Notes under the pieces: generated by a model
What the model saw: only the letters and a program-made list of their open reading frames with translations
The model's database searches: none
What the model was told of the DNA's origin: nothing
Program-made: the position numbers and the translations under genes
Source of the DNA: Vicinamibacteria bacterium
GTDB lineage: Bacteria > Acidobacteriota > Vicinamibacteria > Vicinamibacterales > JAENWD01
Direction of reading: 5' to 3'
DNA length: 64,000 nt
Assembly (NCBI GenBank): GCA_963787035.1
Contig: CAWBBN010000015.1
Location: forward strand, 430,306-494,305
Shown: positions 3,781-46,419 of the stretch, piece by piece
Layout of the letters: the number at the start of each line of letters is the position of its first letter
How positions within the stretch are numbered: the stretch's first letter is position 1

Positions 3781-3800
3781 GATTTTCTTCGTGCGTACCG

Positions 3801-3828
3801 CTGAGGCCGGCCCTTCGGCCTCAGTTTG
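3801..3828 (+). terminator. Rho-independent terminator after the decarboxylase gene
   Basis: Hairpin CTGAGGCCGG-CCC-TTCGGCCTCAG followed by TTTG. Confidence 0.55.
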
Positions 3829-3939
3829 CGCCGATTTCGACGGCGTCACCAGTGGCCGGGCCGCGCGGGCGGGCCGCGCGGAATCTGGCACGCGGGTTGA
3901 ACTGACCCGGGCTGGTTCAGTCCTCTCAGGAGACCCCAG

Positions 3940-4921: not shown

Positions 4922-4926
4922 CGCGC

Positions 4927-6230
4927 TTATGACTGCGGCTTGCGGCCGTCGAGCTCCTCGTCGAACAGCCCGCGAATCTCCGGCGCCTGCACCTCGCGCG
5001 TGGCCTTCTCGACGACCTGCACTTCGGGGATGTCGTCCCCGTGCGCAGCGCCGAGCTCACGGAAACGTCGCGCCGTGACGAGGACGCGCGTTTCGAGCGA
5101 GGCGACAGATCGATTGTAGGCCTCTACGGCCTTGTCGAGCCCGCGCTTCACGTCGTCATAGTGGGTCGCCAGCACGAGCAGACGATCGTAGAGCTGCCTG
5201 CCGAGCTCGCTGATTTCCTGCGCGTTGGCCTGGATCCGCTCCTGGCGCCAGCCGTAGGAGACCGCTTTCAGCAGCGCGATGAGCGTGGTCGGGCTGGCCA
5301 GGATGACGCGGTTCGACATCCCGTGCTCGAGCAGCAGCGGGATCCTGCGTGAGGGCGGCGCTGAACAGCGCCTCGCCCGGCAGGAACATGATCACGAACT
5401 CGGGCGTGTCGTCGAACTGGCTCCAGTACGCCTTGCTGCCGAGCCGGGTCAGGTGATCGCGCACCTGCCGCGCGTGGTCGGCGAGCGAGCGCAGCGCGCT
5501 CGGCCTCGTCCTCCGATTCGATCGCGTCGAAGTACGCCGCCAGCGGCGTCTTGGCGTCCACGATGACGCGCTTGTTGCCGGGGAGGCGGACCATGAGATC
5601 GGGCCGCATGCGGACGTCGTCCACCGTGAAGGTTTCCTGCTCGACGAAGTCGGTGTGCTCGACCATCCCGGCCAGCTCGACGACCTGGCGGAGCTGCACC
5701 TCGCCCCAGTGCCCGCGGACGTGCGGCTGGCGCAGCGCCTTCACCAGGCGGCCGGTTTCGCCTTGCAGCGTGGAGAGCCCGGTGCCGAGCGCGCGCAGCT
5801 GCTCGGCCAGCGTCGCGGAGGTCGACACGCGATCCTTCTCGACGTCGATCATCCGGGCGTCGACGGCCTTCAGCGTCTCCGCGATCGGGCGGACCATCTC
5901 CGAGATCGACTGCTCGCGCTGCTTGAGGTCCCCCGTCGCGCGCTCGTGGAACTTCTCGAGCGTTGAGGTCGCGAGGGTGACCACGGATTCCGTGTTCGCC
6001 TGCAGCGCTTCGGCCGCCGTGGACCTGAAGACGTCGCGGAGCTGCTGCTCGGCGCGATCGAGCAGCGTCTGCCTGTCGTTGGCCGCTTCGAGGCGCGCTT
6101 CGGCCGCGGCCGCGCGTGCCGCCGCGGCCGCCGTCGCCTCAGCGACCTTGCGACCTTCCTGCTGCCGGACGACGAGCCAGGTTAGAAACCCGCCGGCCGC
6201 AAACGCGAGCAGCAGCTCGAGAAGTTGCAC
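4927..6230 (-). CDS. rmuC: DNA recombination protein RmuC; at least two apparent frameshifts
   Basis: Three overlapping minus-strand ORFs (5268-6230, 5156-5464, 4927-5319) together read an N-terminal TM plus coiled coil, then ...[17 protein letters not shown]..., ...[28 protein letters not shown]... and ...[23 protein letters not shown].... Each joins RmuC family sequence in a different frame. Confidence 0.7.
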
Positions 6231-8388: not shown

Positions 8389-9639
8389 ATGCCGGCGAGC
8401 GCCAGCGAGCCGGCCCCGTTCACATCACCAACGACTGCGCCAGCCATCGCCATCACCAACGCGCGGATCGTGCCCGTGACGTCCCCCGTGATCGAGAAAG
8501 GCACCATCGTCATCAAGGGCGGCCGCATCGTCGCGCTCGGGCCCGATGTGGCGGTGCCCGCAGGCGCCGAGGTCATCGACGCCGCGGGCAGCGAGGTCTA
8601 TCCGGGCTGGATCGAGCCGGCCACGTCGCTCGGGCTCGACGAGCCGGGCCCGCGTGGATTCCAGGACACGTCCGAGCAGACGCCGCTCAACCCGGAGCTG
8701 CGCACGCGCGTCGCGTTCCACGTCGAAAGCGACGGCATCCCCGTCGCGCGATCGAACGGCGTCACGACCGTCGGCGTCGCGCCCGACGGCGGCATCCTCG
8801 GCGGCGAGGTCGCGGTCATGAATCTCGACGGCTGGACCTGGGAGCAGGCCACGCTGCGCAAGTCCGCCGGCATCTCGATGCAGTTCCCGCCGGTGCGCCC
8901 GCCGCGGCGCTTCGGGGCGCCGCCCGCGCGCGACGAGTCCTACGACGACCTGAAGAAGGCGCGCGACAAGAAGCTCGACGACGTCGTCGCGTTGCTGGAG
9001 CGCGCGCGTGCGTACTCGGCAATGCCCCCGGCGTCGCGGCCCACGGATTGGGTGCTGGAATCGCTCGTGCCCGTGATCGACGGCGCCGCGCCGGTCTTCG
9101 TCGGCGCTGATTCCGAGGCCGACATCAAGGACGCGGTCGCGTTCGCGGATCGCGCGAAGATCCGCATCGTCATCGTCGGCGGCGCCGAGTCGCCGCTGGT
9201 CGCGTCGCTGCTGAAACAGAAGAACATCCCGGTCGTCTTCGGCCCGGTGCAGGACCTGCCGACGCGGCCGGATTTCCATCAGGCGGACCGCTACCGCGCC
9301 GCGGCCGCGCTGGCCGACGCGGGCGTGAAGTTCGCGTTCACGATGGGCGGCGACGAGACGTTCGAGCGTGACCTGCCCTATCAGGCGGCCGAATCGATCG
9401 CGTGGGGGCTGAGCCGGGACGCGGCGCTGCGCGCGCTGACCATCGACGCGGCCGCGATTCTGGGCGTCGACAAGGAGGTCGGCAGCCTCGAGCCGGGCAA
9501 GCTCGCGAATCTGTTCATCGCCAGGGGCGATCCCCTCGAGGTCCGCACCGAAGTGACCGAGGTGATCATCGCGGGCCGCCGCGTGGGCGTGGACAACATC
9601 CACCGGCAGTTCTACGAGAAGTGGTCGAAGAGGCCGTGA
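8389..9639 (+). CDS. Amidohydrolase-family protein B (no signal peptide; possibly a second domain fused to A through a Lys/Glu/Ala linker)
   Basis: 416-aa ORF. ...AITNARIVPVTSPVIEKGTIVIKGGRIVALG... parallels the N-terminal beta-sandwich of A and C. C-terminal ...GKLANLFIARGDPL.... Frames stay open between A and B. Confidence 0.6.
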   Translation: MPASASEPAPFTSPTTAPAIAITNARIVPVTSPVIEKGTIVIKGGRIVALGPDVAVPAGAEVIDAAGSEVYPGWIEPATSLGLDEPGPRGFQDTSEQTPLNPELRTRVAFHVESDGIPVARSNGVTTVGVAPDGGILGGEVAVMNLDGWTWEQATLRKSAGISMQFPPVRPPRRFGAPPARDESYDDLKKARDKKLDDVVALLERARAYSAMPPASRPTDWVLESLVPVIDGAAPVFVGADSEADIKDAVAFADRAKIRIVIVGGAESPLVASLLKQKNIPVVFGPVQDLPTRPDFHQADRYRAAAALADAGVKFAFTMGGDETFERDLPYQAAESIAWGLSRDAALRALTIDAAAILGVDKEVGSLEPGKLANLFIARGDPLEVRTEVTEVIIAGRRVGVDNIHRQFYEKWSKRP

Positions 9640-9640
9640 A

Positions 9641-9698
9641 GGTTTATGGGTCATGGGGCCGTGGGTTCATGGGTCGTAGGGCGGGACTCAGTCCCGCC
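9641..9698. repeat. GGGTCATGGG-type tandem repeats plus a terminator-like hairpin after amidohydrolase B
   Basis: GGTTTATGGGTCATGGGGCCGTGGGTTCATGGGTCGTAGGGCGGGACTCAGTCCCGCC. Confidence 0.5.
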
Positions 9699-9729
9699 AT
9701 GTGTGCGGGCCTTCAGGCCTGCCAGCGTC

Positions 9730-11053
9730 ATGAGGTTTCATATGCGTGTGCTCCGTGCGGCGGCCGTGGCCGTCGGCCTTCTGTCGATAGCCATCGCACC
9801 GCGTGTTCTTGCGGTCAGCGTGCCTGGTTACGCGATTCTCGGCGCGAAGATCGTCACCGTGCACGGCGCGACCATCGATCAGGGCACGGTCGTCATCCGC
9901 AACGGCGTCGTCGAGTCCGTGACCGATGGCGTGAAGAGCCCGGGCGGCGTCGAAGAGATCGACGGCAAGGGTCTGGTGGTCTATCCGGGTCTCGTCGATC
10001 TCAACAGCACCGTCGGCCTGGACCAGCCACAGGCCGGAGGCGCCGAAGGACCCCGAGACGCGCGAGGTGAGCGAGCGCTGGCGCCGGCAGCAGCTCGTGC
10101 ACGCGGACCTTTCCGCCGCCGATTTCCTTCGGCCCGAATCTCCAGATCTCGGCAAGCTCGCCGGCATCGGCGTGACGAACGCGCTCGTCGTCCCGAAGGG
10201 CGACGGCATCAGCGGCGAGAGCGCATTCATCGACGTCGCGGGGCCGGAGATCGATCCCCAGTACGGGCGCGTTGCGCTCGATCCGCGCGGCCCGATGATT
10301 CTCAGGACGCCGGTGGCGCTGCACGTGTCGTTCCCGGGCCGCGGTCTCTTCGGCGCGTATCCCGCATCGCTGATGGGCGGCATCGCGTTTACGCGACAGG
10401 CGTTTCTCGACGCCCAGCGCTACAAGCTCGCGGCGTCGAAGGCTGACGCCACCGGCGATCGCCCGGCGTACGATCCGGCGCTTGCCGCGATGGCGAGCGC
10501 CCTGGGCGCGAAGCTTCCGGTGGCGTTCGAGGCGAATTCCGCGCGCGAGATCCGGCGGGTCCTGGCATTCGCGAAGGACTTCTCGCTCGATCCGATCGTC
10601 GTCGGCGGCGTGAGCGCGGGCGAAGTGGCTGCCGATCTGAAGGCCGCAGGCGCGCGGGTGATCATCAGCCTGAACTACCCGGAGCGTCCGAAGACGCTGG
10701 CGCCCGACGCAGACGAGCCGCTCGAAGACGTGCAGGACCGCGCGGACGCCCGCAGGGCGGCCGGGCAGCTCGCGGCGGCCGGCGTGCCGTTCGGCTTCGG
10801 GTCGCACGGCCTCAAGGACGTGAAGGACTTCCTGCCGAACGTGCGAAGCGCCGTCTCAAACGGCCTCAGCGCGGACGCCGCGGTGAAGGCGCTGACGCTC
10901 GACGCGGCGACGATCGCCGGCATGGGATCAAAGCTGGGCGCGATCGAAAAGGGCCGGATGGCAAATCTTGTCGTGACGGACGGCGATCTCCTCGGGGCGA
11001 AGACGAAGGTGAAGTACGTCTTCGTCGAAGGCCGCCGCATCGCGCTGCCATAG
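9730..11053 (+). CDS. Amidohydrolase-family protein C (secreted); frame switch near 10050
   Basis: Signal peptide [50 protein letters not shown]-terminal ...[32 protein letters not shown] in ORF 10067-11053. Confidence 0.65.
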
Positions 11054-11091
11054 GATCGTCGTGGGGCAGGGCTTCAGCCCTGCAAGATCAT

Positions 11092-11485
11092 ATGCAACGA
11101 CAAAACATCTCGTCCGGCGTGAAATGGGAACCGATCGTCGGCTATTCCCGCGCGGTGCGCGTCGGCAACTACGTGCACGTCGCGGGGACGACGGCGACCG
11201 GCGGACGACGGATCGATCGTCGGCGGCACGGACGCGGGCGCGCAAACGCGGCAGGTGCTGAAGAACATCGCCGCCGCGCTCGAGAAAGCTGGCGCCCGCC
11301 TCGAGGACGTCGTGCGCACGCGGATGTTCGTCACCGACATCAGCCAGTGGGAAGCCATCGGGCGCGCGCACGGCGAGGTGTTCGGCGCGATCCGCCCTGC
11401 GACGTCGATGGTGCAGGTGGCCGCGCTCATCTCTCCGGAAATGCTCGTCGAGATCGAGGCCGACGCGATTGTCCCCGAACGCTGA
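11092..11485 (+). CDS. ridA: RidA/YjgF family reactive-intermediate deaminase; one frameshift
   Basis: N-terminal ...[21 protein letters not shown] and C-terminal ...[26 protein letters not shown]...[12 protein letters not shown] sit in two frames. Confidence 0.7.
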
Positions 11486-12243
11486 CCCGCCCGGCGCCGA
11501 CCCGATCACGCAGTTCTCCGCGGTCTCGAAGGACTACGCGAAGTTCCGGCCGCGCTATCCTCGCGCGCTGTTCGAGTGGATCCGATCGATCGTCGACCGC
11601 CACGCGCTCGCGTGGGACTGCGCCACAGGCAGCGGACAGGCTGCCGTAGGGCTCGCCGACGATTTCGCGCACGTCGAAGCGACCGACGCCAATCCCGAGC
11701 AGCTCCGTCACGCGACGCCGCACCCGCGGATCACGTATCGCCAGGCGCTCGCGGATCGCAGCGGGCTGGCGGACGGCACGGTGGATGTCGTCACGCGTCG
11801 CGCAGGCGCTGCACTGGCTGCCGTTCGACGAGTTCTACGACGAGGCGCGGCGCGTGCTGCGTCCGGAGGGCGCGCTCGTCGCGTGGGGCTATCACCTGCC
11901 AGGTGTCGGCATCGCCTCGATCGATCACGCGATGACGCACTTTCACGACGTCGTCGTCGGGCCGTACTGGCGTCCCGAGCGGCAGCTCGTCGTCAACAAG
12001 CTGCGTACGGTGCCGTTTCCATTCCGCGAGATCGAGGCGCCGCCGTTCGAGATCCGCTATCCGATGGCGCTCGCGACGTTCGGCGACTTTCTCCGGACGC
12101 AGTCGGCGACGGAGCGATACCGCCACGTCGTCGGATCCGACCCCGTGCCCGAGTTCGAGTCGTCCGTCGTCGAGGCCTGGGGCGGACGCGACACGGTCCG
12201 CGAGGTCGTCTTCCCGATGTTCGTCCGCGCAGGCAGACCGTAA
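11469..12243 (+). CDS. Class I SAM-dependent methyltransferase; one frameshift
   Basis: [19 protein letters not shown] (motif I GxGxG), then ...[13 protein letters not shown]... (post-I/II) in a second frame. Confidence 0.6.
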
Positions 12244-12332
12244 GCACCTAGTCCACAGCCACTTACAGGCCTACTGACCCTGCTCGTCCCACCGTTCGTC
12301 ACCGCAAATCGGACGTCCGAAGGAACAAAACT

Positions 12333-12370
12333 ACGAAGATCTTCGTTGACTACTACGAAGCTCCTCGTAG
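12333..12370. promoter_or_regulatory. Putative BlaI-type operator: 14-bp perfect palindrome ACGAAGATCTTCGT plus a second TACGAAG-containing dyad, just upstream of blaI
   Basis: 12333-12346 is a perfect palindrome. 12353-12370 CTACGAAGCTCCTCGTAG is an imperfect dyad sharing the TACGAAG half-site. It lies 13 bp before the blaI ATG. Confidence 0.4.
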
Positions 12371-12382
12371 AGAGTAGGTGCC

Positions 12383-12769
12383 ATGACATCGCCGAGACCC
12401 ACCGACGCCGAGCTCGCCATCCTGGGCGTGCTCTGGTCGCGCGGCCCCAGCACGGTGCGCCAGGTGCAGGACGTGCTGAACGAGCAGCGCCCCACCGGCT
12501 ACACGACCGCGCTCAAGCTGCTGCAGATCATGACGGAGAAGCACCTCGTGGCGCGCGACGAGTCGGACCGCACGCACGTCTATCGCGCGCGCTGGACCCA
12601 GACCGAAACGCAGCGGCAGCTGCTCGACGACCTGCTCGAGCGCGCGTTCGGCGGGTCGGCGATGACGCTGGTGATGCAGGCCCTCGCGGGCGACAAGGCG
12701 ACGCCTGAAGAGCTCGCCGAGATTCGACGGCTGCTCGAAGAGAAACAGACGCAGGGAGGCGCGCGATGA
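12383..12769 (+). CDS. BlaI/MecI/CopY-family (penicillinase-repressor type) transcriptional repressor
   Basis: 128 aa. Winged-helix N-terminus ...ELAILGVLWSRGPSTVRQVQDVL...TTALKLLQIMTEKHLVAR.... Stop overlaps the next gene's start (ATGA). Confidence 0.8.
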   Translation: MTSPRPTDAELAILGVLWSRGPSTVRQVQDVLNEQRPTGYTTALKLLQIMTEKHLVARDESDRTHVYRARWTQTETQRQLLDDLLERAFGGSAMTLVMQALAGDKATPEELAEIRRLLEEKQTQGGAR

Positions 12770-15700
12770 CAGGCTTGTCCCCGACGTGGACCTCGGTGCT
12801 CGGCTGGACGCTCGTGCACTTCCTCTGGCAGGGCACGGCGCTCGCCATCGCCCTCGCCATGGCACTGACGGTCGTGCCTCGACGCTTCGCCCGCGTGCGC
12901 TACGCGCTCGGCTGCTCGACCCTGGCGCTGATGCTGGCCGTGCCGACGGCGACGGCATGGCGACTCTCAGATCCGCAGCAGCCGGCCTCGCCGTTGTTCG
13001 AGGCCGCACGCGCGACGAGCTGTCGTGTCCGATACCGGCGCCGGCCGCGACATCGCCGGAACACCTGCGCGCGACCTCGACCGCGTCGCTCGGTCCGAGC
13101 GGTCGGCTGATCCAGCGGCGACCGTGCCGGTGGAACGCATCGATCCGTCCGCGGCCATGCCGTGGGTCGTCGCCGTGTGGATGATGGGCGTGCTGCTCTG
13201 CTCGCTGCGGCTCGCCGGGGGCTGGTGGCACGCCCGCAGGCTCGCGTTCGTCGGCGCGCACGCCGCCGCGCGAGAGTGGCAGGAGGTCGTGGCGCGCCTG
13301 AAGTCTCGGCTGGGCGTCATGCGATCGGTGCGCCTGCTGGAATCGGCGCGCGTCTCGGTGCCGATCGTCGTCGGGTGGATCAAGCCGACGCTGATCGTGC
13401 CGGCCGCCGTCCTGGGCGGACTTGCCCCGAGCGAGCTCGAAGCGGTGCTCGCACACGAGCTCGCGCACATCCGGCGGCACGACTATCTCGTCAACCTGCT
13501 GCAGTCGGCCGTCGAGACGCTGCTCTTCTACCACCCCGGCGTCTGGTGGGCGTCGCACGTCGTCCGCGTCGAGCGCGAGCATTGCTGCGACGATCTCGCG
13601 GTGAAGGCCTGCGGCGACGCGGTGCTCTACGCGCGGGCGCTGACGGCCATCGAGCTGATGCGCCACGATCCCGCCGGCAGCATGGCGATGGCCGTCACCG
13701 GCTCGCCGCTGCTCGCGCGCGTCCGCCGCCTGCTCGGCGTCCGCGAGCCGGCACGGCTCTCGTCCTCGGGATGGGTGGTCGCGATCCTCACGGTGCTGAT
13801 GGTGTCTGGCGCCGGCGTCACCAGCTGGGTCCGCGGGTTCCCGCTGGCCTCGTTCGCCGGCGAGGAGATCGCCGCCTCCGGCTCAGTCGTCCGCGCCGCA
13901 GCCGGCGCCGGCGACGCAATCGACGCCTCCGGTCGATGCCACGAAGGCCGGCCTCGCCCGTCGCCGTCGTCGGTCCTACCGGCCACGGCGTCGCGGCATC
14001 GACGCCGACATCTGACACCTACGACGCGACGATCGCGGCGGTCGACCGCGCGCGGATCGAAGCGGCACGTGCCGCGGATCAGCGTTCGGCGGGAATGACA
14101 CCTCAGGCTGCCGTCGAGCAGACGCTGGCCAACCGCCAGTTCGCGCTAGAGGCGGCGGCGCAAGCGAGAGACGCCGCTGACGCCGCGCGTCTCGTCGCAG
14201 AGATCCAGCGCCAAAGCGGAGCTCAGTCGCGCGTCGTCGCGCAGGAAGCCATGCGTCAGGCGCGCGAGATGCTGCGGAGCACGCACCAGGCGGTGATGTC
14301 AGCGGAGCGCGCGCTGCAGCAGGCCATGCGCGAAGCGCAGCGCGGCGCTCGCAGCCGCTCGTGGTGGGGCGACGAACCTCCGGTTCCTCCGGCGCCCCCT
14401 GCCCCGCCCGCGCAGCCCGCTCCGCCGGCACCTCCGGCACCGCCGGCGCCCCAGGCAGGCACGGTGCCCGCGGTCACCGGCAACGCCAGCGCCGCCGGCG
14501 CCGCCGGCGCCACCCGCCCCGCCAGCGCCTCCCGCGCCGCCGGCCGGCGTCTCGTGGAACTCCCAGGAGGGCGGCACCTGGAACATGGTCGAACAGCCAC
14601 GACGGCGAGACGCTCAAGATCAACGCGCACGGCAGCGTCGAGTTCACCGACGACGAGACCGACGTGCAGAAGGTGTCGCCGGGCGGCTACATCACGATCG
14701 AGAAGTCGAACGGCCGGTGGCTCGCCACTGACAGCCAGAAGTTCGACGCGCGCGACAAGAACGGCACCATCGTGCGGACCTACTACGCGAACGGCAAGGA
14801 GATGAGCGCCGAGGAGGGCCGCGCGTGGCTGAAGACCTTCCTCCCGGAGTTGCTGCGTGAGATGGCGGTCAACGCGGACCGTCGCGTCGCGACGTCAGCT
14901 CGCGAAGGGCGGCCCTGGTCTCGTGCTGGAGGAGATCGGCCGCACGAAGAGCAGCTACGCGAAGGGCGTGTACTTCCGCGAGCTCTTCACTCAGGCGAAA
15001 CTCGACCCGCAGATGCTCTCGCGCAGCCTGCAGCAGGCGCGCCGCGAGGTGCACTCCGACTACGACCTGGCCGAGACCCTGATCGCGGCGGCGAAGCACC
15101 AGGCGATCGACGGCGCGCTCATGGATTTCGTGAACGCCTCGCGCTCGGTGAAGTCGGACTACGACGAAGGCCGTGTCCTGCAGCAGGCGATCACGCGGCC
15201 AGGCGTGACTCCGGCCGTGGCCGCCGCGGTGTTCAGCGCCGCAACGCCCGCCGCCGACAACAGCGGCATCCAGTCCGACTACGATTTGGCGGAGTTGCTC
15301 AGCAGGACGCCGCCCGCGCTGATCGAGCAGTCGGCGTCGGGATGGGCCGCGGCCATCGCGACGCATCGGCTCGTCCTACGACCGCAGCCGCGCCATCGAG
15401 GCCGCGCTGAAGCCCGGCGCAGCGCCTGCGACGGTGCAGGCTGCGCTCGAGGCGGCCTCGGGCATCTCATCGGACTACGACCTGGCCACGCTGCTCACGA
15501 ACGCGGCGTCGGCCGGCGTGCTGAGCGACCGCACGGCGAGCGCGTACCTCGGCGCGACGAGCCACGTGAAGAGCTCGTACGATCGCGGCCGCGTGATGCA
15601 CGAGATCGCGAAATCGTCGCTCGGCGATCAGTCGCTCGCGCAGGCCGTCGGCCTGGCGGCGACGATGTCATCGGACTACGACCGCGCCGAGGCGCTCATC

Positions 15701-15829
15701 GCGTTGAGCCGCGCGCGAGGCATCGGGCCGGCAACGAAGAAGGCGCTCAGCGATTCGGCCTCCGCGATGCATGGCGAGTACGATCGCGGCCGGGTGCTCG
15801 AGGCGCTGTCGTCGGCGGGAATTCGATAG
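12766..15829 (+). CDS. BlaR1-like M56-peptidase transmembrane sensor with a long non-PBP C-terminal repeat domain; several frame switches
   Basis: TM1 LGWTLVHFLWQGTALAIALAMAL. HExxH in HELAHIRRHDY. TM4. Then a coiled coil, a (PPAPPA)n linker, a ~110-aa beta-rich module and ≥8 alternating SDYDLAxxL / SxYDxGRVL repeats down to the TAG at 15827-15829. Confidence 0.6.
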
Positions 15830-15837
15830 CTCGGAAA

Positions 15838-15884
15838 GCAGGCCTGAAGGCCTGCCCCATCAAGTCAGCCTTCAGGCCTGCCCC
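15838..15884. repeat. REP-like hairpin element (family B: GCAGGCCTGAAGGCCTGC and its inverted partner)
   Basis: GCAGGCCTGAAGGCCTGCC…GCCTTCAGGCCTGCC lies immediately after the blaR1-like stop. The same 18-25-mer recurs at 23641-23703 and 46388-46412. Confidence 0.55.
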
Positions 15885-16492
15885 ACCAACCGTCCGTCGC
15901 TCATGACGACAATCTGATCGGCCGCCACGCGAAGATCCGCTTCGTCGTGCGACACGTGGATCGCGGGGATGCCAGCCTCCGCGATCCATGCGCCAAGCGA
16001 CTCCAGAATCCGCCGCCGCAGCGGCACGTCCACCGCCGAGAGCGGCTCGTCCAGCAGCAGCAGCGACGGCGACGATGCGAGCGCGCGTGCGAGCGCGACG
16101 CGCTGGCGCTCGCCGCCGGAGAGGCCGTGGATCGGCCGGTCGATGAGCGGCTCGATCTCCAGCATCCGCAACAGCCCGTCGAGCGGCGCGCTGCCGCCCC
16201 GGTCCGCGCCGTACATGATGTTGCCGCGGACGTCGAGATGCGGGAAGAGCGCGGCGTCCTGCGGCGCGTAGCCGATGCCCCTGTCGCGGACGTGCGTGTG
16301 CGTGCCCGTGGCCGTGTCGGCCAGCACGCGATCGCCGACCACAATCCGCGCGTGACGTGGCCGCCGCAGCCCCGCAATCACCTCGAGCAGCGTCGTCTTG
16401 CCGGACCCTGACGGGCCGAAGAGGCCGAGCAGCCGGCAGTCGCCCTGCCACGAGACGTCGAGCGCGAAGCTCCCCTGGGTGAGCTGCGCCAT
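15872..16492 (-). CDS. modC: Molybdate ABC transporter ATP-binding protein, short form without a TOBE domain
   Basis: Walker A GPSGSGKTT, signature LSGGERQRVALARAL, Walker B LLLLDEP. Last gene of the modABC set. Confidence 0.7.
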   Translation of the reverse strand: MAQLTQGSFALDVSWQGDCRLLGLFGPSGSGKTTLLEVIAGLRRPRHARIVVGDRVLADTATGTHTHVRDRGIGYAPQDAALFPHLDVRGNIMYGADRGGSAPLDGLLRMLEIEPLIDRPIHGLSGGERQRVALARALASSPSLLLLDEPLSAVDVPLRRRILESLGAWIAEAGIPAIHVSHDEADLRVAADQIVVMSDGRLVGQA

Positions 16493-16527
16493 GACGGTCA
16501 GCGGCACGCGCGGCTGATCGAGCATCG

Positions 16528-17193
16528 CTAGGCTCCCTCGCGCACGAGCCGGTTCGAGATCCAGACGGCCACGAAGGCGATCACCAGGGAGGCAACCGCC
16601 AGCGTCGCGGCGTCCTGATCGCGTCCCGTCTCGAGGAAGCCGTACATCGCAAGCGACACCGTGCGTGTCTCGCCGGGAATGCTGCCGGCGATCACCATGG
16701 ACGCGCCGAACTCGCCGAGCGCGCGGGAGAAGCCGAGCAGCGCGCCCGCGAGCACGCTGCGTCGTGCGAGCGGCAGGCTGATCGTCAGGAACACGCGGAG
16801 CGGGCCGGCGCCGAGCGTCTCGGCCATCTGCTCGAAGCGTCGCGTGCCCTGCTCGAAACCTGCGCGGGCGCTGCGGACGACGAGCGGCAGGCCCATCACG
16901 ACCATCGCGATGACGAGCGCCTTCCACGTGAAGATGATGTCGACGCCGGCGCGATCCAGGAGCGCGCCGAACCAGCCGCGGCGGCCGAGCAGCCGCAGCA
17001 GCAGGAATCCGGTCGCGACCGGCGGCAGCACGAGCGGCAGCGTGACGAGCGTCTCGACCGGCGCCTTGAGCCACGACTGGCTGCGCGCCAGCCACCACGC
17101 CAGCGCCACGCCCGGCGGCAACATGACCAGCGTCGCCGCGAGCGCGACGACCACCGTGAGCTGAAGGATGGAGAGGAGCTCGCCCGAGATCAT
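16528..17193 (-). CDS. modB: Molybdate ABC transporter permease
   Basis: 221 aa, intact. EAA-like loop ...SRALGEFGASMVIAG.... Typical ModB length and topology. Confidence 0.8.
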   Translation of the reverse strand: MISGELLSILQLTVVVALAATLVMLPPGVALAWWLARSQSWLKAPVETLVTLPLVLPPVATGFLLLRLLGRRGWFGALLDRAGVDIIFTWKALVIAMVVMGLPLVVRSARAGFEQGTRRFEQMAETLGAGPLRVFLTISLPLARRSVLAGALLGFSRALGEFGASMVIAGSIPGETRTVSLAMYGFLETGRDQDAATLAVASLVIAFVAVWISNRLVREGA

Positions 17194-17970
17194 CGAGCGG
17201 CGGCCGTGTCGGGCGCGAGGAAGCCGCTCGCCGCAAATGTCTCGCGTGACGCGGCGCTCTGCAGGAAGGCGACGAACTTCCGTGCCGCCTCCGGATGCGC
17301 GGCGTGCTTCAACACCGCGCCCGGATAAAGAATCGGCGGCGCGTCAGCGATCGGCACCTCATATGCGACCGTCACCTTCGCGTCGGCTGTCGCGTCGGTG
17401 CGATACACGATGCCGGCGTCGGCGTTGGCGGCCTCGACGGCGACCAGCGCCGCGCGGACGCTCGCCGAGGGCACGATCTTGGGCTCGATGCGGCGCCAGA
17501 GACCGACGCGTTCGAGCCACGTCTTCGCGTACACGCCGGCCGGCACGCCCTGGGGGTCGCCGATCGCCACGCGCTTCACGGCGTTGTCTGCGAGCGAGTC
17601 GGGTGGAGGCCCAGGGAGCGCGCGGCCCGTCGGCACGACGACGACGAGCTGGTTGGTGAACAGGGTGACGCGATCGGCAGTGTCGGCGCTTCCACCAGAG
17701 ATCGACGCGATCCATCTGCGCCTCGTCCGCGCTGATGAAGACGTCGACGGGGGCGCCCTCGAGAATCTGACGGGCGAGCACGTTCGAGGCGGCGAAATTG
17801 AACTCGACGTGTGGGTTGCCCGCGGCGTCCCACCGCTGACCCACTTCGCTCAGGACATCCGTAAGGCTGACCGCGGCTGCGACCCGGAGCGGCCCGCGGG
17901 CGGCACCTCGTGGCGTGACGCCGGTTGCATGCGCCGGCCACGACGCAGACGCCGACAAGTGACGCCGCGT
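17190..17970 (-). CDS. modA: Molybdate-binding periplasmic protein; one frameshift
   Basis: N-terminal ...LRVAAAVSLTDVLSEVGQRWDAAGNPHVEFNFAASNVLARQILEGAPVDVFISADEAQMDRV and C-terminal ...VYAKTWLERVGLW…VAYEVPIADAPPILYPGAVLKHAAHPEAARKFVAFLQS in two frames. Confidence 0.65.
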
Positions 17971-18102
17971 GACAGCGCGCGAAGCCCCGAAGCCCTCAGG
18001 AAACGCATCGAGAACACTCCGCGAGTCTCGCATGAAACGCCAGGCGAGAGCGCCGCTTGACCCTGGAACGATTCCAGCCTGTAGGGTATAACGCGGGAGT
18101 TC

Positions 18103-18576
18103 TTGATGTCACAACTACTCGCGATTCTTGCGGTTGCGTCCATCGGCCTCGCGCCACAGAACGCCGACCCCACGCAGACGCGCGCCGCCATGGCCATGGG
18201 CTTCGATCAGCAGGCGACGACGCACCACTTTCGTCTTTACGAAGACGGCGGCGCCATTGAAGTCACCGTGAACGATCCGGGCGACGTCAAGGATCGGGCT
18301 GCCATTCGTTCGCACCTGCCGCACATCGCTATGATGTTCGGGAACGGCAACTTCGATGCGCCGATGCTCGTGCACGACTCGTCTCACGTTCCAGGAACCG
18401 CGGTGATGGCGGAACGGCGCGATTCGATCCGGTACACGTACGTCGAGACGACGAACGGCGGACGAGTGGAGATCGTCACAAAGGATCCCCAGGCGCTGGC
18501 CGCGGTGCATGCGTTCCTGACCTATCAGATCGCGGAACACAAGACCGGCGACACCGCCACGGTGTCCAAACGATAA
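18103..18576 (+). CDS. Secreted His-rich hypothetical protein
   Basis: Signal peptide MSQLLAILAVASIGLAPQNA. Many His residues (HHFRLYEDGG, HLPHIAMMFG, HDSSH). No family recognised. Confidence 0.45.
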   Translation: MMSQLLAILAVASIGLAPQNADPTQTRAAMAMGFDQQATTHHFRLYEDGGAIEVTVNDPGDVKDRAAIRSHLPHIAMMFGNGNFDAPMLVHDSSHVPGTAVMAERRDSIRYTYVETTNGGRVEIVTKDPQALAAVHAFLTYQIAEHKTGDTATVSKR

Positions 18577-18583
18577 GAGACCT

Positions 18584-19084
18584 ATGCGACCCTCCGCCGC
18601 GGCCCAGGCTACCGGCGTCAGCACGGACACACTCCGGCACTACGAGAAGTTGGGACTCCTCGGGGCGGTGACGCGGTCCGCGAACGGGTATCGCCGGTAC
18701 TCCGAAGACACCATGCGGCGGGTTCTTCTGATTCAGCGCGCCCTGGTGGTGGGATTTTCGCTCGAGGATCTCAAGCGGATTCTGGCGATCCGGGATCGCG
18801 GAGGCGCGCCATGCCAGGGCGTCCGGAGCCTGGTCGCCGAGAGACTGGTCGCGCTCGACGCGCAACTCGTCGAGTTGCAGGACTTGCGCGACGATCTGCG
18901 TCGCCTGCTGAAAACGTGGGATCGCGCCCTGGCCGGGACTCAACCAGGCCAGCCGGCGCACCTGCTGGAATCACTCGGTTCAAGACGTCCGATTGAACGC
19001 GCCCGAAACGCCGCACCGAGCGATCCGCGAAGGGTCCGGAGCGGCGTGGCATTTGACACGTCCCGCGGCCCTACGCTAGCCTGA
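18584..19084 (+). CDS. MerR-family transcriptional regulator
   Basis: N-terminal HTH ...AAQATGVSTDTLRHYEKLGLL...GYRRYSEDTMRRVLLIQRA.... Coiled-coil dimerisation region. Confidence 0.75.
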   Translation: MRPSAAAQATGVSTDTLRHYEKLGLLGAVTRSANGYRRYSEDTMRRVLLIQRALVVGFSLEDLKRILAIRDRGGAPCQGVRSLVAERLVALDAQLVELQDLRDDLRRLLKTWDRALAGTQPGQPAHLLESLGSRRPIERARNAAPSDPRRVRSGVAFDTSRGPTLA

Positions 19085-19213
19085 CGGCAGTCATGGTGCA
19101 GTTCGTCCACCACGCGCACGTCCATCGCCATCTGGCCTCGGGGCCGGACCGGTCGAGCTGCGCGTAGGGCGAACGACATCAACACGACGCCCGATTTCGA
19201 GCAACGCACGCAG

Positions 19214-19241
19214 CCCCGCCGGTCCGGCGGGGTTTTTTTTT
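19214..19241 (+). terminator. Rho-independent terminator
   Basis: CCCCGCCGGTCCGGCGGGG stem followed by T9. Confidence 0.65.
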
Positions 19242-19261
19242 GGCTGGCGCCGGGCCGCGGA

Positions 19262-19440
19262 GGACGCGGAGGGTTTCACAGAGACGCGGAGACTACACAG
19301 AGACACAGAGAAACGCGGGGTTGCCGGGGACCGCCCTGGCCACGGTGGACCGGGCGGCCCCCGGCAACCCCGCGTCCCTCTGTGTCTCCGTGTAGCCTCC
19401 GTGACTCTGTGAAGCTCTCTGCGGTCTCCGGGGCGTTCCT
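19262..19440. repeat. ~180-bp imperfect palindromic element with CACAGAG-rich arms, upstream of hisI
   Basis: Left arm TCACAGAGACGCGGAGACTACACAGAGACACAGAGAAACGCGGGGTTGCCGGGG. The right arm is its near-perfect reverse complement. Related to the element at 59940-60215 (shared CACAGAGMCGCGGAGA). Confidence 0.55.
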
Positions 19441-19458
19441 GGGCCGTAGCGAAGCGAG

Positions 19459-19779
19459 ATGAACGCGATGGACTTCAGCAAGTTTCAGGGCCTCGTGCCG
19501 GCGGTGGTGCAGGACGCCGACTCGAGCGAGGTCCTGATGGTCGGCTTCATGAACGAGGACGCGCTGGCGCGCACGCGCGAGTCCGGTTACGTCACGTTCT
19601 TCAGCCGCACGCGCAACACGCTCTGGACGAAGGGCGAGACGTCGGGCAACCGCCTGCAGGTCGTGGACCTGCTGGTGGACTGCGACGAGGACACGCTGCT
19701 CGTCAAGGCGAAGCGGCTCGGCGACGGCAACGTGTGCCACACCGGCCAGCGCACCTGCTTCAACACGAGGCTCGAGTAG
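19459..19779 (+). CDS. hisI: Phosphoribosyl-AMP cyclohydrolase
   Basis: ...[25 protein letters not shown]...[16 protein letters not shown]...CDEDTLL...GDGNVCHTG. Confidence 0.85.
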
Positions 19780-19781
19780 TC

Positions 19782-20673
19782 ATGGCCACGCTGCGACTGG
19801 GAATTCCGAAGGGCTCACTGCAGGACGCGACGGTACAGCTGTTCGCGCGCGCCGGCTTCACGCTGAACGTCAACAGCCGGTCGTACTTCCCCACCGTGGA
19901 CGATCCCGAGCTCGAGTGCATGCTGATCCGCGCGCAGGAGATGGCCCGCTACGTCGCCGACGGCGTGCTCGACGCGGGCCTCACCGGCCAGGACTGGATT
20001 CGCGAGCACGAGGTCGGCCATCCGGAAGAAGCGCCGCTCGTCTCCATCTGCGACCTCATTTACGCGAAGCAGAGTTTCGGCAAGGTGCGTTGGGTGCTCG
20101 CCGTGCCCGAGGACTCGCCCTTTCAGCGCGCCGAGGATCTGGCCGGCAAGACGATCGCCACCGAGCTGGTCCGGGTGACGAAGGCGTACTTCGACGCCCG
20201 CAAGGTCGACGTCGACGTCGAGTTCTCGTGGGGCGCAACGGAAGTGAAGCCGCCGGTGCTCGCCGACGCGATCGTCGAGGCGACGGAAACCGGCTCGACG
20301 CTGCGCGCGAACCGGCTCCGCATCATCGACACGCTGATGGAGTCGAACACGCAGCTCATCGCCAACGAGAAGACCCTGGCCGACCCGTGGAAGAGGACAA
20401 AGCTCGACAACATCGCGCTGCTGCTCAAGGCGGCGATCGAGGCCCACGGCCGCGTCGGCCTGATGCTGAACGTCCGGCGCGCCGATCTGAGCGCGGTGCT
20501 GTCGCTCCTGCCCGCGCTGCAGCGGCCCACGATCTCTCCGCTGAGCGACGACGGAATGGGTCGCGGTCAACACGATCATCGAGGAAAAGACGGTGCGCGA
20601 TCTGATCCCGCGCCTGAAGCTCGCGGGCGGGCAGGGGATCGTGGAGTATCCGTTGAACAAGATCGTGGTCTGA
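19782..20673 (+). CDS. hisG: ATP phosphoribosyltransferase (long form); apparent frameshift near 20560
   Basis: [14 protein letters not shown]…. The C-terminal regulatory domain …[38 protein letters not shown] is in a different frame from the body. Confidence 0.8.
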
Positions 20674-20674
20674 G

Positions 20675-20728
20675 CGGTTCAGGGGTTCAGATCGGTTCAA
20701 GGTCGGTTCAGCCGGTTCTGAACCGAGT
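20675..20728. repeat. Tandem (C)GGTTCA hexamer array plus a small hairpin
   Basis: GCGGTTCAGGGGTTCAGATCGGTTCAAGGTCGGTTCAGCCGGTTCTGAACCGAG sits right after the hisG stop. Confidence 0.6.
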
Positions 20729-20784
20729 CAGACGTCGTAGCCGAACCTGCAGTATCGGCCGAACCGAGAACGCAGCTATGGGAC

Positions 20785-22026
20785 ATGTCCATTCGAATCG
20801 TTGATGCTTCGGACACGCGCGAGGTCGACGCGCTGCTGTCGCCGCGCCGCGCGGACGACCGCGCCGTGATGCGCCGCGTCAGCCGCATCGTCGACGCCGT
20901 GCGCGCGGAGGGCGACGCCGCGGTTCGACGGTTCGCGGCGCAGTTCGATGGCTTCGACGGGCCGTTCGAGATTCCCAGAGCCGCCTGGAAGGCCGACGCG
21001 CGCAAGGCGCCTCGCGACGTGCGGGCCGCGCTGAAAGTCGCCGCCGCCAACATCGCGCGCGTTGCAGAGGCACAGCGGCCGCTGTCGCGTCGCGTGCGTG
21101 TCGCGCCGGGCGTCACGGTCGAACAGCGGGTTCGTCCGCTCGATCGCGTCGGCTGTTACGTGCCCGGCGGACGCTATCCGCTGCCGTCGACGCTGCTGAT
21201 GACGGCAATTCCGGCGCGTGTCGCCGGAGTGCCGGAAATCGTCGCGGTCTGTCCGCGGCCCGAGCCGATCGTGCTCGCGGCGGCCGAAGCCGCGGGCGTC
21301 ACGCGGCTGTTCCGCCTCGGCGGCGCCCACGCCATTGCCGCTCTCGCTTTTGGCACGACGTCGATCCCGCGCGTGGATCGCATCGTCGGCCCGGGCAACA
21401 AGTACGTCGCCGCCGCGAAGAACTACGTCTCGAGCGAGGTCGGCATCGACATGCAGGCCGGTCCCAGCGAGATCCTGATCCTGTCCGACAGCGGTGACCC
21501 GGCGTGGCTCGCGGCCGACCTGATCGCGCAGGCGGAGCACGACCCGGACGCCCGCGCGCTGCTCATCACGACGAAGCGGCGTCTGGCCGCGGCAGTCGCG
21601 CGCGAAGTCGATCGACGCGTCCCTGACGAAGGGCCCGCGCGGGCATCGCTCGCGGCCAACGGCGGCATCATCGTCGCCAGGACCCGCGCGGAGATGATCG
21701 CGCTGGCGAATCGCATGGCGCCCGAGCATCTCGTGGTGGACGACGAGGCGACGGCGGCGGCCGTGAGCCGGGCGGGCGCCATCTTCGTCGGCGCGCACAC
21801 CGCGCAAGTCGCCGGCGACTACGCGATCGGGTCGAATCACGTGCTTCCCACCGGTGGGGCGGCCCGGTTTCGCGGCGGCCTCAGCACGGCTGATTTCGTG
21901 CGGGTCGTGTCGGTCCAGCGAGTGACGCGGGCGGGCCTGAGGCGCCTGGCGCCCACCGTCCGGACGCTCGCGCGCGCCGAAGGTCTCGTCTCGCACGAGG
22001 CATCCATCCGAGTGAGGGTTCCGTGA
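20785..22026 (+). CDS. hisD: Histidinol dehydrogenase
   Basis: 413-aa intact ORF. ...[27 protein letters not shown]...[13 protein letters not shown]...AQAEHDP.... Confidence 0.9.
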
Positions 22027-23074
22027 GCGAAGGCTATAGCCGCCCCGCGCCGACGGGTGACGGGCTGCGACTGCACCTCAACGAAAACACCGCGGGCTGC
22101 TCGCCGAAGGTGCTCGAGGCGCTGGCCGCGCTCAGCGCCTCCGATGTCGCGTGCTATCCCGACTACGACGTCGTCTACCGCGAGACCGCGGCGTACCTGG
22201 GTGTGCCCGAGGAACGCCTGCTGCTCGTCAACGGGCTCGACGAAGGCATCCTGATGGCCACGCTGGTCGCGCTGCGCGGCCAGACGATGGACGGGAGGTC
22301 GGCGGAGTTCGTGGTGGTGACGCCGGCCTTCGACATGTATGCGATCACGGCGCGCGCGTGCGGCGGCGCCGTCGTGAACGCGGCGCCACGCGACGATTTC
22401 GAGTTCCCGCTCGAGAACGTCCTGAAGGCGATCACGCCCGCGCACCCGCCTCGTATTCGTGACGAGCCCGAACAACCCGACCGGCGTGCGGGTCACGAAC
22501 CGCGACATCGAGGCCGTCGCTCAGCGCTGTTCCTGCCGGCGCGCTCGTGTTCGTGGACGAGTGCTACCACGACTTCTGCGGCGACACCGCGCTGCCGCTC
22601 ATCGACGCGCATCCGAACATCATCGTCGGCCGGACGTTCGCGAAGTCGCAGGGGCTCGCGGCGCTTCGTGCCGGCGCGCTGATCGCCACGCCAGAGGCGC
22701 TCGGGCCGTTCAAGGCAGTGACCCCGCCCTACAGCCTGAACGTCGCCGCTGCCGTCGCGCTCCGCGCGGCGATCGCCGACGGCGCCCGGTTGCGCTGGTA
22801 CGTCGATCAGGTCGTGCGCTCTCGAGAGCTGATGTACGAATTCTGCGCGCGCCACGGCTTCGAGACCTGGCAGAGCGGCGCGAACTTCGTGCTCGCGCGC
22901 GTCGGCCCGCAGTCGGCCGCGATCACGGCGGCACTGAAAGCGCGCGGCATCTTCATCCGCGACAAGACGGGCGACCCGGGATGCGACGGCTGCATCCGGG
23001 TCACCACCGGCGTCGTCGCGGACACGGAACGCTGTCTCAACGCGATGGAGGACTTCCTGTGCGGCGCGCGGTAA
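22023..23074 (+). CDS. hisC: Histidinol-phosphate aminotransferase; two apparent frameshifts
   Basis: [12 protein letters not shown]… (frame 0), …[12 protein letters not shown]… (frame 1), then …[13 protein letters not shown]…[17 protein letters not shown]… (frame 2). The internal PLP Lys sits in the KSQGLA context. Confidence 0.75.
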
Positions 23075-23652
23075 TCGATCGGCGGACGACCGAGACGCAG
23101 ATTCTGCTGAAGCTGACGATCGAGGGGAAGGGCCGGTACGCGATCTCGACCGGCATCCGATTCCTCGATCACATGCTCGAGCTGTTCACGCGGCATGGCG
23201 CATTCGACTTGACGGTGAAGGCGACCGGCGATCTCGACGTCGATCAGCACCACACCGTCGAGGACCTCGGCATCGCGCTCGGCGAGGCCGTGAGCGCGGC
23301 GCTCGGCAATCGCCGCGGCATCAACCGCGCCGGCTATTTCGTCATGCCGATGGACGAGACGCTCGCGGTGGTCGCGCTCGATCTTGGCGGCCGACCGCAC
23401 GCGTCAGTGGACCTGAAGCTGAAGGTCGCGCGCGTCGGCGACCTGCAGGCGGAGCTGATTCACGATTTCTTCGAGGGCTTCGCCATCGGCGCGCGCGCCA
23501 ACGTCCACGCGAAGGTGCTCTACGGGCGCTCGAGCCATCATCACGTGGAGGCGGTCTTCAAGGCCTTCGCGCGAGCGTTGCGCGTCGCGTGCTCGAAGGA
23601 CAGGCAGCTGGCGAAGGCGCTGCCCAGTACCAAAGGACTCTGTAGCGCAGAC
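23059..23652 (+). CDS. hisB: Imidazoleglycerol-phosphate dehydratase; its 3' end reads in-frame through a REP hairpin into hisH
   Basis: GTG start overlaps the hisC end. ...[10 protein letters not shown]...[16 protein letters not shown]...[14 protein letters not shown]...[15 protein letters not shown].... No in-frame stop before the hisH ATG. Confidence 0.7.
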
Positions 23653-23703
23653 CTTCAGGTCTGCCCTTGGCACAGCGAAGCAGGCCTGAAGGCCTGCGCT
23701 ACA
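23641..23703. repeat. REP-like inverted repeat (family B) between hisB and hisH
   Basis: TGTAGCGCAGACCTTCAGGTCTGC…GCAGGCCTGAAGGCCTGCGCTACA. The left 25-mer is nearly identical to 46388-46412. Confidence 0.6.
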
Positions 23704-46322: not shown

Positions 46323-46419
46323 GGTTCTCGTGCTTCCGAATGCCGGGGCTGAAGCCCCGGCCTACTGTTCTCGCGATGCCTACGATGTGTAGCGCAGGCC
46401 TTCAGGCCTGCCTGGATCT

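Follow-up and report, generated by a model that had tools for sequence, protein, structure and literature searches.

A BlaI/BlaR-type gene pair from a Vicinamibacteria bacterium whose M56 protease carries a tethered beta-meander and HEAT-like solenoid in place of a penicillin-binding domain

A 64,000-nt stretch of the Vicinamibacteria bacterium assembly GCA_963787035.1 (contig CAWBBN010000015.1, positions 430,306-494,305 of the forward strand; hereafter the window) carries a blaI repressor gene that overlaps the start of a gene for a BlaR1-like membrane protease of the M56 family. We propose, with a probability of roughly 65%, that the two genes form an autoregulated BlaI/BlaR (BlaIR) proteolytic switch in which the penicillin-binding sensor is replaced by another extracytoplasmic receptor. 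That receptor would be a ~410-residue module, a beta-meander followed by a HEAT-like alpha-solenoid, held at the end of a long tether behind the last membrane helix. Because the penicillin-binding domain is missing and the module is predicted to be exported, the trigger is likely a non-beta-lactam, possibly envelope-derived, and the system most likely senses something other than penicillins. All coordinates are window positions, and residue numbers of the BlaR-like protein refer to a frame-corrected open reading frame (ORF) of 1,018 amino acids, the grounds for which are given below.

The first gene, blaI (12383-12769, + strand), encodes a 128-residue winged-helix repressor of the BlaI/MecI type. 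Its product matched the Pfam family PF03965 (Penicillinase_R) over profile positions 2-115 of 115 (E 2.9e-25; 89.3 bits, cut-off 22.6), and among solved structures M. tuberculosis BlaI came nearest (2G9W, E 2.9e-11), with S. aureus BlaI second (1SD4, E 2.6e-4). The CopY subtype of such repressors is marked by a C-terminal Cys-rich metal-binding motif. Since the window protein has no cysteine at all and fell far under the score of the CopY equivalog model TIGR02698 (CopY_TcrY; 46.5 bits, cut-off 122), it was classed as BlaI-type and not CopY-type. The blaI stop codon (TGA, 12767-12769) overlaps the start codon of the M56 gene (ATG, 12766-12768) in a 4-nt ATGA, an arrangement found likewise in nearly all related loci. 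This overlap and the Pfam matches of both products bear out an initial annotation of the window, made from the sequence without database searches, which had placed blaI here with a BlaR1-like gene overlapping its end.

The second gene (12766-15829, + strand) begins with the membrane and protease part of the BlaR-like protein, which matched PF05569 (Peptidase_M56) with an E value of 4.6e-31 (108.5 bits, cut-off 31). By Kyte-Doolittle hydropathy, the N-terminal membrane region (12811-13207, + strand) comprises transmembrane helix (TM) 1 (12811-12876, residues 16-37), a weaker TM2 (12904-12960), a predicted outside loop of ~63 residues (12961-13150) and TM3 (13151-13207, residues 129-147), and the last membrane helix, TM4, follows at 13757-13831 (+ strand; residues 331-355, hydropathy peak 2.01). 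While TM2 is weak, TM1, TM3 and TM4 are clear, and the order of the helices is that of BlaR1, by analogy with which a tentative topology was assigned (PMC9834060). The M56 gluzincin domain (13154-13741, + strand) contains HELAHIRRHD from 13454 onward, with HELAH at 13454-13468 (H230, E231 and H234) and E271...D275 at 13577-13591. The spacings H230-E271 (41 residues) and E271-D275 (4 residues) are those of H201, E242 and D246 in S. aureus BlaR1, whose zinc site also includes H205 (PMC9834060), and the HEXXH...E...D motif is kept in all full-length relatives. As judged from these alignments, the zinc-site residues are intact and lie on the loop before the last membrane helix, in keeping with the canonical TM1, HELAHxxxHD zinc motif and late TM4 noted in the initial annotation. 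What comes after TM4 is predicted to be extracytoplasmic. When the M56 region was compared as a single sequence with the PDB by phmmer, no match emerged; it takes the Pfam profile to see the relationship to BlaR1. In NCBIfam, the BlaR1 equivalog NF000326 (blaR1_generic) gave 95.1 bits against a cut-off of 400 and was matched only at profile positions 91-308 of 585, that is, in the membrane and protease part and not in the penicillin sensor, and the MecR1 model NF033109 gave 39.1 bits against a cut-off of 1,200.

Behind TM4, composition delimits a tether of ~240 residues (13832-14551, + strand) that recurs with the identical three parts in L007-L012, loci of close relatives. It consists of an S/T/P/A-rich segment (13832-14025, residues 356-419), an A/R/Q-rich segment (14026-14376, residues 420-536; A 27%, R 13%, Q 11%) and a proline-rich PPAPPA-type segment with two tracts (14380-14551, residues 538-594). 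The tether leads into a beta module (14588-14798, + strand, residues 607-676), predicted to be a seven-strand antiparallel meander and carrying a near-invariant FTDDxTDV, and then into a predicted HEAT-like alpha-solenoid of 22 helices (14811-15823, + strand, residues 681-1017). Nine S-D-Y-D-type motifs punctuate the solenoid, starting at nucleotides 14950, 15055, 15154, 15274, 15371, 15470, 15572, 15671 and 15773 (residues 727, 762, 795, 835, 867, 900, 934, 967 and 1001) and thus lying 32-40 residues apart; after a degenerate first unit, eight more follow that are by turns of type A (SDYDLAELL) and type B (SDYDRGRVL). An AlphaFold2 model of P0001, a database protein 96% identical to the window's module, was built from a 54-sequence alignment and reached a mean predicted local distance difference test (pLDDT) score of 94.2 and a predicted template modelling (pTM) score of 0.87. 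It shows seven beta strands and then 22 helices, stacked as antiparallel two-helix repeats in a HEAT/ARM-type superhelix. The initial annotation had anticipated much of this: a beta-rich module (the peptide it quoted lies at 14588-14798), at least eight alternating A/B units of ~35 residues and, as a guess, an alpha-solenoid. Other parts of its description held only partly. The C-terminal domain that it called repeat-based over ~600 residues does contain the repeats, but of the ~660 residues after TM4 these account for ~340, with ~240 in the tether and 70 in the beta module; its (PPAPPA)n linker at ~14380-14460 is present, but that range covers just the first of the two tracts; and its Q/A-rich coiled coil corresponds to the A/R/Q-rich stretch, whose helical nature is presumed.

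S-x-x-D/E is the classical helix N-capping box. In the model of P0001, the serine of each of the nine motifs directly precedes a helix start (for example, S157 before the helix at 158-171 and S190 before that at 191-202), and in other clades the motif reads SDFE, SSDGDK or SSYEQS, with SSDGDK/SSDGDH in Terriglobia. Because the motif caps helices and varies among clades, it appears to be structural, a helix N-capping box that builds the scaffold and marks no binding site, and it tells little about any ligand. Neither Pfam-A and NCBIfam scans of window fragments nor Pfam scans of 54 homologues and 10 distant representatives found a model for the module, the family profile hidden Markov model had no match below E 0.01 among PDB sequences, and the Foldseek matches were confined to weak ones of the TPR/ARM/PUF type, the best of which had TM-scores of ~0.2. 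TonB_C had no match in the Pfam scans, and neither profile nor structure comparison revealed a transpeptidase or beta-lactamase fold or a PF00905-type sensor in the module. The modelled fold, then, is free of a penicillin-binding protein (PBP) domain and matches no family in Pfam-A or NCBIfam, which agrees with the initial impression that no PBP or beta-lactamase fold follows TM4 and that the A/B repeat is not a named domain.

Upstream of blaI lie two dyads that would form the operator of its promoter. Dyad 1 (12332-12347, + strand; TACGAAGATCTTCGTT) encloses a perfect 14-bp palindrome (ACGAAGATCTTCGT, 12333-12346), and its right arm enters a -35-like hexamer, TTGACT (12346-12351, + strand), which is TTGACA in most relatives in a by-eye alignment of 39 upstream regions. 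Dyad 2 (12354-12369, + strand; TACGAAGCTCCTCGTA) occupies the spacer between this hexamer and a -10-like hexamer, GAGAGT (12370-12375, + strand; GATAGT or CATAGT in relatives), which was called from its position and conservation; 18 nt separate it from the -35, and the blaI ATG is 7 nt further on. Counting the window, 39 sequences keep the dyads upstream of blaI, the other 38 being related Vicinamibacteria-type loci, while the flanking sequence diverges; a further locus, L026, was left outside the 39, the stretch extracted from it having held the second dyad only. Across the 39 the layout is CTACGAAG-NN-CTTCGTTGACA, 1-3 nt, TACGAAG-N4-(T/C)TCGTA and GAnAGT or CATAGT, with the geometry of the dyads relative to TTGACA fixed and a spacer of 17-18 nt. 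The arms of dyad 2, TACGAAG and (C/T)TCGTA, are constant, and its central 4 nt differ among loci. With up to one mismatch allowed, TACGAA-N4-TTCGTW occurs at only two sites in the 64 kb, which are dyads 1 and 2, against 0.05 expected by chance, and in 731 kb of related loci 78 operator sites lie at blaI and 3 elsewhere. The assignment of the two dyads as the putative operator of the blaI promoter is therefore strongly backed by phylogenetic footprinting, and the candidate operator proposed at the outset, a 14-bp palindrome plus a TACGAAG dyad, is indeed in place. As dyad 1 runs into the -35 and dyad 2 fills the spacer, a bound repressor would occlude the promoter. The position of the -10 just 7 nt before the ATG suggests that in this clade the blaI mRNA is leaderless or near-leaderless.

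In nine Terriglobia loci (L046, L049-L052, L054, L056, L057 and L059), BlaI is ~33% identical to that of the window and is accompanied by another, AT-rich dyad of the AACTA-N5-TAGTT type, which sits relative to TTGACA as in the window; a divergent BlaI with a divergent dyad in the same place is what co-evolution of repressor and operator would produce. The Terriglobia operator lies ~130 nt upstream of blaI and reads AACTATTAATTnnTTAATTGACA, followed by a second AACTA-N5-TAGTT dyad after a TATAAA box. As a separate observation, the window's blaI is preceded by no well-spaced Shine-Dalgarno sequence, and many related loci have an equally tight spacing of -10 and ATG.

The module is widespread. 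When 1.84 billion cluster representatives were searched with the family profile, 4,920 proteins scored at E <=1e-3 and 2,160 at E <=1e-30, which amounts to a family of ~4,900 clusters at 50% identity. Of the 147 best-scoring representatives that were new, 115 contain M56 (confirmed with Pfam for a sample), and the others are fragments or proteins of 450-580 residues with N-terminal signal peptides. A scan of species-representative genomes (one genome per species), which used a narrower alignment (A2) because the broader one (A1) was too diverse, gave 57 related loci in diderm phyla only, mostly in Vicinamibacteria and other Acidobacteriota including Terriglobia, with some in Gemmatimonadales and two in Cyclobacteriaceae. 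The closest species representative is an Acidobacteriota metagenome-assembled genome (L006, 92% identity). Four loci are without an M56 partner: in L047, L048 and L055 the module has a signal peptide, and in L030 it is membrane-anchored, as stand-alone modules among the database proteins (P0045 and P0061) likewise carry a signal peptide or membrane anchor. Since stand-alone homologues bear such export signals, the fused module is predicted to be exported too. In the two Cyclobacteriaceae loci (L047, 5845-10302; L055, 5869-10266), genes for two LytS-type histidine kinases (PF06580) and for a LytTR response regulator come after the module gene in the same orientation; this may be another signalling context in which the sensor module is used. 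The exported stand-alone forms and the LytS/LytTR neighbours suggest that the module acts outside the cytoplasm in a sensory or accessory role and can serve different transducers. The anchored module of L030 stands in another setting (2761-5668), with a Ser/Thr kinase gene and then an extracytoplasmic function (ECF) sigma factor gene and a cyclophilin gene, and without M56 or blaI.

From these features a working scheme can be drawn. At rest, a BlaI dimer would sit on both dyads and block RNA polymerase at the blaI-blaR promoter. The tethered solenoid would bind, or lose, a periplasmic or outer-envelope partner, presumably a protein or polymer rather than a small molecule, as is usual for solenoids, and the change would be relayed over the membrane to the cytoplasm-facing M56 domain. 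This domain would then cleave BlaI, as BlaR1 cleaves BlaI directly (PMC9834060), so that the dimer concentration would fall and blaI-blaR, together with any distant operator-bearing promoters, would be derepressed. DNA binding, BlaI cleavage, the direction of regulation, the nature of the trigger and the passage of a signal over the 240-residue tether are all steps that we infer from the resemblance to known systems.

Several observations weigh against this scheme. In the phmmer alignment with 1SD4, S. aureus LVLNFAKNE stands opposite LVMQALAGD, and the scissile N101-F102 position in the dimerisation domain of S. aureus BlaI is Q-A in the window protein; cleavage at that position is therefore not assured, and the cleavage site here may differ from that of S. 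aureus. No further operator-bearing target gene besides blaI-blaR was found in the 64-kb window. A strict sigma-70 scan found no full promoter at blaI, a result explained by the weak -10, and the promoter call rests on conservation. The structure searches, which returned generic solenoids only, point to no ligand. The tether is long and probably flexible, which makes relay of a signal to the protease hard to explain, and the S. aureus BlaR1 relay, in which a loop docks in the sensor active site, cannot apply literally. A frame shift shared with a related contig also counts on this side and is discussed with the gene structure below.

A rival to ligand binding would be mechanical or structural envelope sensing. 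Here the tether would reach across the periplasm as TonB or TolA does, the solenoid would stay docked on an outer-membrane or peptidoglycan-associated partner, and the protease would be activated when damage to the envelope or an altered periplasmic width breaks this contact. With its ~115-residue helical-type segment and ~57 residues of PPAPPA, the tether recalls the proline-rich spacer in TonB; among M56 architectures, the one with TonB_C ranks second in frequency (PMC13081940); solenoids typically bind proteins; and the restriction of the family to diderm phyla is in line with such an arrangement. In other clades, however, the module is carried on much shorter or serine-rich linkers (P0037, P0038, L018 and L044), so a fixed span is not a conserved feature, and no partner gene is conserved beside the operon: all-against-all ORF clustering of 61 loci, in which antisense shadow ORFs and paralogous kinases and amidases were confounding factors, found no gene shared next to blaI-blaR across clades. 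We consider a spanning mechanism rather unlikely. A broader proposal, which we put forward tentatively and hold as possible but doubtful, is that the module is an undescribed, widespread extracytoplasmic sensor of soil diderms that feeds M56/BlaI switches in Acidobacteriota and Gemmatimonadota and LytS/LytTR systems in Cyclobacteriaceae, and that in the window's clade it is tethered across the periplasm and reports on an outer-envelope partner. If true, this would be a trans-envelope signalling route in Acidobacteria without a characterised counterpart.

The scheme of a single sensor-protease requires that the second gene be one ORF, and in the window as deposited it is not. Three-frame translation revealed seven +1 frame shifts between 12766 and 15829 (3.06 kb), with inserted single bases at 13018, 13883, 13952, ~14478, 14592, 14890 and 15362. 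Deleting these seven bases yields the single 1,018-residue ORF, without an internal stop, that encodes protease, tether, beta module and solenoid. The contig L001, an ENA metagenome contig syntenic with the window and 95.7% identical to it, is free of six of the seven inserted bases and carries a different set of indels itself. The problem extends beyond this gene: single-base indels relative to L001 hit every gene of window positions 8600-23000 (for example at 8621, 9804, 10032, 11198, 11795, 12282, 16525, 17704, 17850, 20552, 22440 and 22521), both contigs carry such indels in their amidohydrolase, methyltransferase, mod and his genes, and the methyltransferase (11469-12251) and modA (17190-18033) genes are each visibly split over two frames. 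The window assembly is error-prone, so ORF-based readings elsewhere in it need frame correction. In the closest complete relatives (L008-L012, Vicinamibacteria), the gene is a single ORF of 1,009-1,048 codons with an architecture identical throughout, and in 43 of the 57 genomes of the species scan M56 and module lie in one uninterrupted ORF, a fusion that the initial annotation had proposed to look for beside blaI homologues in other Acidobacteria. The ratio of nonsynonymous to synonymous substitution rates (dN/dS) of the module was 0.079 (window against L001), 0.096 (window against L002) and 0.107 (a third pair), which indicates purifying selection. As relatives have one ORF, the module is under purifying selection and indels occur window-wide, the seven frame shifts are read as sequencing or assembly errors and not as signs of a split gene or pseudogene, and the frame switches suspected from the outset did need repair.

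The shift at ~14478 is the least comfortable of the seven. It falls in the PPAPPA-coding region, between the two tracts and after QAGTVPAVT, and is common to the window (14440-14480) and L001 (5840-5900); being in both contigs, it is not simply an independent random error. We assume that it is a systematic error in a GC-rich repeat, although a real, lineage-specific shift is conceivable. L001 also has an extra 4-base insertion just before the shared shift. A shared shift at this point would fit two genes, with the M56 protein ending after the tether and a separate module of ~413 residues starting at the methionine of TWNM (14585). Many database entries, among them the public gene calls P0001, P0002, P0013 and P0018, are proteins of 410-419 residues that start at that methionine, such entries being the best hits to the C-terminal region, and the short-read scaffold L003 also switches frame just upstream. 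These entries, however, come from contigs that either start inside the PPAPPA tract with the frame open to the edge (L002 and L003) or are themselves frame-shifted in it (L001 and L004). The frame upstream of the methionine is open and proline-rich, with a conserved W-x-S-x-x-G-x-TWNM; in L004 one frame runs unbroken from the last part of the helical segment through the linker into the module; and P0222, which shares a 90%-identity cluster with the 419-residue calls, is a single ORF of 894 residues running from TM3 through M56 and the tether into the module. Six close relatives, like the 43 genomes, have a single ORF, and a 413-residue product would lack the signal peptide that true stand-alone homologues have. 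Two genes are thus very unlikely, and this reading was dropped: the short entries reflect contigs truncated or frame-shifted in PPAPPA, clean relatives and P0222 are fused, and the stop after the M56 domain that would make the repeats a separate gene, a possibility raised in the initial annotation, was not found. In L003 (1-150), a peptide beginning PLPEEAGVVYEEDGTLEGYTEFEPEPEKLLEKL appears in another frame and is like nothing in the relatives' tethers in any frame; it may mark a chimeric join inside PPAPPA and was not used.

Still less probable is a decaying pseudogene with genuine frame shifts. Seven shifts in 3.06 kb is a density somewhat above that of the flanking genes, but each is a one-base insertion that L001 either lacks or has in another form, comparable indels occur in the amidohydrolase, methyltransferase, modA and his genes, and removal of the seven bases leaves no in-frame stop. 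Given the low dN/dS of the module and the spread of indels over the window, this reading was also dropped in favour of a single, intact sensor-protease gene.

Over window positions 8600-23000, gene order is kept in the closest relatives (L001, L002, L003 and L004) as amidohydrolase, RidA-like, methyltransferase, blaI, blaR-like, modCBA on the opposite strand and hisI/hisG/hisD/hisC, so that the pair is adjoined by the methyltransferase and modCBA genes, and none of these neighbours has an obvious functional tie to the signalling pair. Between the convergent BlaR-like and modC genes lies a strong hairpin (15838-15881) with 14-bp perfect arms (GCAGGCCTGAAGGC/GCCTTCAGGCCTGC) and a predicted RNA fold of -32.5 kcal/mol (z -5.3). 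It is built from two copies of the element AGGCCTGAAGGCCTG and is probably a bidirectional terminator or an intergenic repeat of the repetitive extragenic palindromic (REP) type. This short palindromic element is present at six window sites (9706-9720, 11067-11081, 15840-15854, 23648-23662, 23682-23696 and 46395-46409) against 0.09 expected, and L022 has a motif resembling it ahead of its blaI. Another Vicinamibacterales clade is marked by a gene for a Ser/Thr protein kinase of ~500 residues, divergent and on the opposite strand, ~1.2-1.5 kb upstream of blaI in 23 loci (within L017-L062), and several loci of that clade have hybrid histidine kinases or amidases just downstream; the window's own clade is without this divergent kinase.

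Among known systems, the nearest are BlaI/BlaR1 and MecI/MecR1 of S. aureus and B. licheniformis, which share with the window a gene pair of PF03965 repressor and M56 membrane zinc protease, the identical HEXXH...E...D spacing, a protease loop before and, on the predicted topology, a sensor after the last membrane helix, and two dyad operators overlapping the promoter, consistent with autoregulation. That the window's system nevertheless remains a sensor of beta-lactams or other cell-wall antibiotics, through a new fold, is scarcely credible: the founding family members do respond to beta-lactams and public annotation labels relatives 'bla regulator protein blaR1', but Pfam and NCBIfam show no transpeptidase or class D beta-lactamase-like domain, the blaR1_generic score is 95 bits against 400, the predicted fold is an all-helical solenoid plus beta-meander, just ~6% of M56 proteins have a penicillin-binding domain (PMC13081940), and the window, which was not screened for beta-lactamase or PBP genes, holds no operator-bearing target. 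Unlike BlaR1 and MecR1, the window's protein has ~240 residues of tether between membrane and sensor, and neither the window nor the flanks of related loci yielded a linked target gene with the operator. The gene order in S. aureus is blaR1-blaI, whereas here blaI precedes blaR, with the ATGA overlap, in what would be one transcription unit. The aligned cleavage site is Q-A here and N-F in S. aureus, and the host here is a diderm acidobacterium. The operator is built from TACGAAG half-sites in 16-bp dyads, whereas for the CopR-CopY relatives of BlaI the operator box is TACANNTGTA, of 10 bp (PMC7253601). The pair belongs to the broad BlaIR family because it combines a PF03965 repressor with an adjacent M56 gluzincin; it is not a BlaR1/MecR1 equivalog because it has no penicillin-binding domain, scores below the NCBIfam cut-offs and showed, in the window and the flanks of related loci, no resistance gene placed under a further copy of the operator.

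BlaR-like proteins that sense something other than penicillin are not as unusual as the initial annotation assumed. Kurtz et al. (bioRxiv 2026) described ~15,000 M56 proteins in 254 architectures, 96% of them within 5 genes of a BlaI; the commonest architecture has a C-terminal region without an identifiable domain, TonB_C comes second, and transpeptidase domains are found in ~6% (PMC13081940). As BlaR-like proteins that often have no penicillin sensor are already published (PMC13081940), the concept is not new. CenIR of Clostridioides difficile and the BlaI/BlaR pair Rv1846c/Rv1845c of M. tuberculosis, whose BlaI structure 2G9W is the nearest to the window's BlaI, are likewise non-canonical and without a transpeptidase domain. 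Proteins of the CenIR/Rv1845c type have short C-terminal tails, mostly predicted to be unstructured (PMC13081940), whereas the protein described here has a 410-residue, confidently folded module with its own family, found stand-alone and exported as well. The M56-TonB_C fusions of Bacteroidota and other diderms are alike in having M56, a proline-rich periplasmic spacer and a globular C-terminus, usually beside a blaI homologue; the terminal domain here is not TonB_C but a predicted beta-meander plus HEAT-like solenoid, and is about four times larger. HEAT/ARM-like solenoids such as alphaRep, TOG domains, the PP2A A subunit, AlkC/AlkD and CpcE/F showed 5-16% identity and no family-level match to the module, and they are cytoplasmic, whereas the module is predicted to be periplasmic and is set apart by its strict A/B alternation, S-D-Y-D capping box and N-terminal beta-meander cap. 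ExoR is a periplasmic Sel1-repeat protein that regulates the ExoS/ChvI sensor kinase system. It is alike as an exported helical-repeat protein working with a membrane signal transducer, to be compared with the Cyclobacteriaceae modules near LytS/LytTR, but the repeat family here is not Sel1/TPR by Pfam, and in the window the module is covalently fused to its transducer.

BlaI/BlaR systems are textbook resistance switches, yet most members seem to sense other signals, almost none of them known, and the present family is large and mostly found in hard-to-culture soil Acidobacteriota. If the partner of the module were found, it would reveal what a major soil phylum monitors in its envelope and would justify a new domain-family entry for thousands of proteins that are now listed as 'hypothetical' or under the wrong label of 'beta-lactamase regulating signal transducer'; were the trigger to prove mundane, the result would still be a useful correction of annotation, with no new principle. 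The locus makes one orphan class concrete by giving the boundaries of its ~410-residue module, its repeat logic and its operator and promoter architecture. Set beside the systems above, what is new here is the definition of that one large class: a sensor predicted to fold as a beta-meander and capped HEAT-like solenoid, with its tether, its stand-alone relatives and its putative operator.

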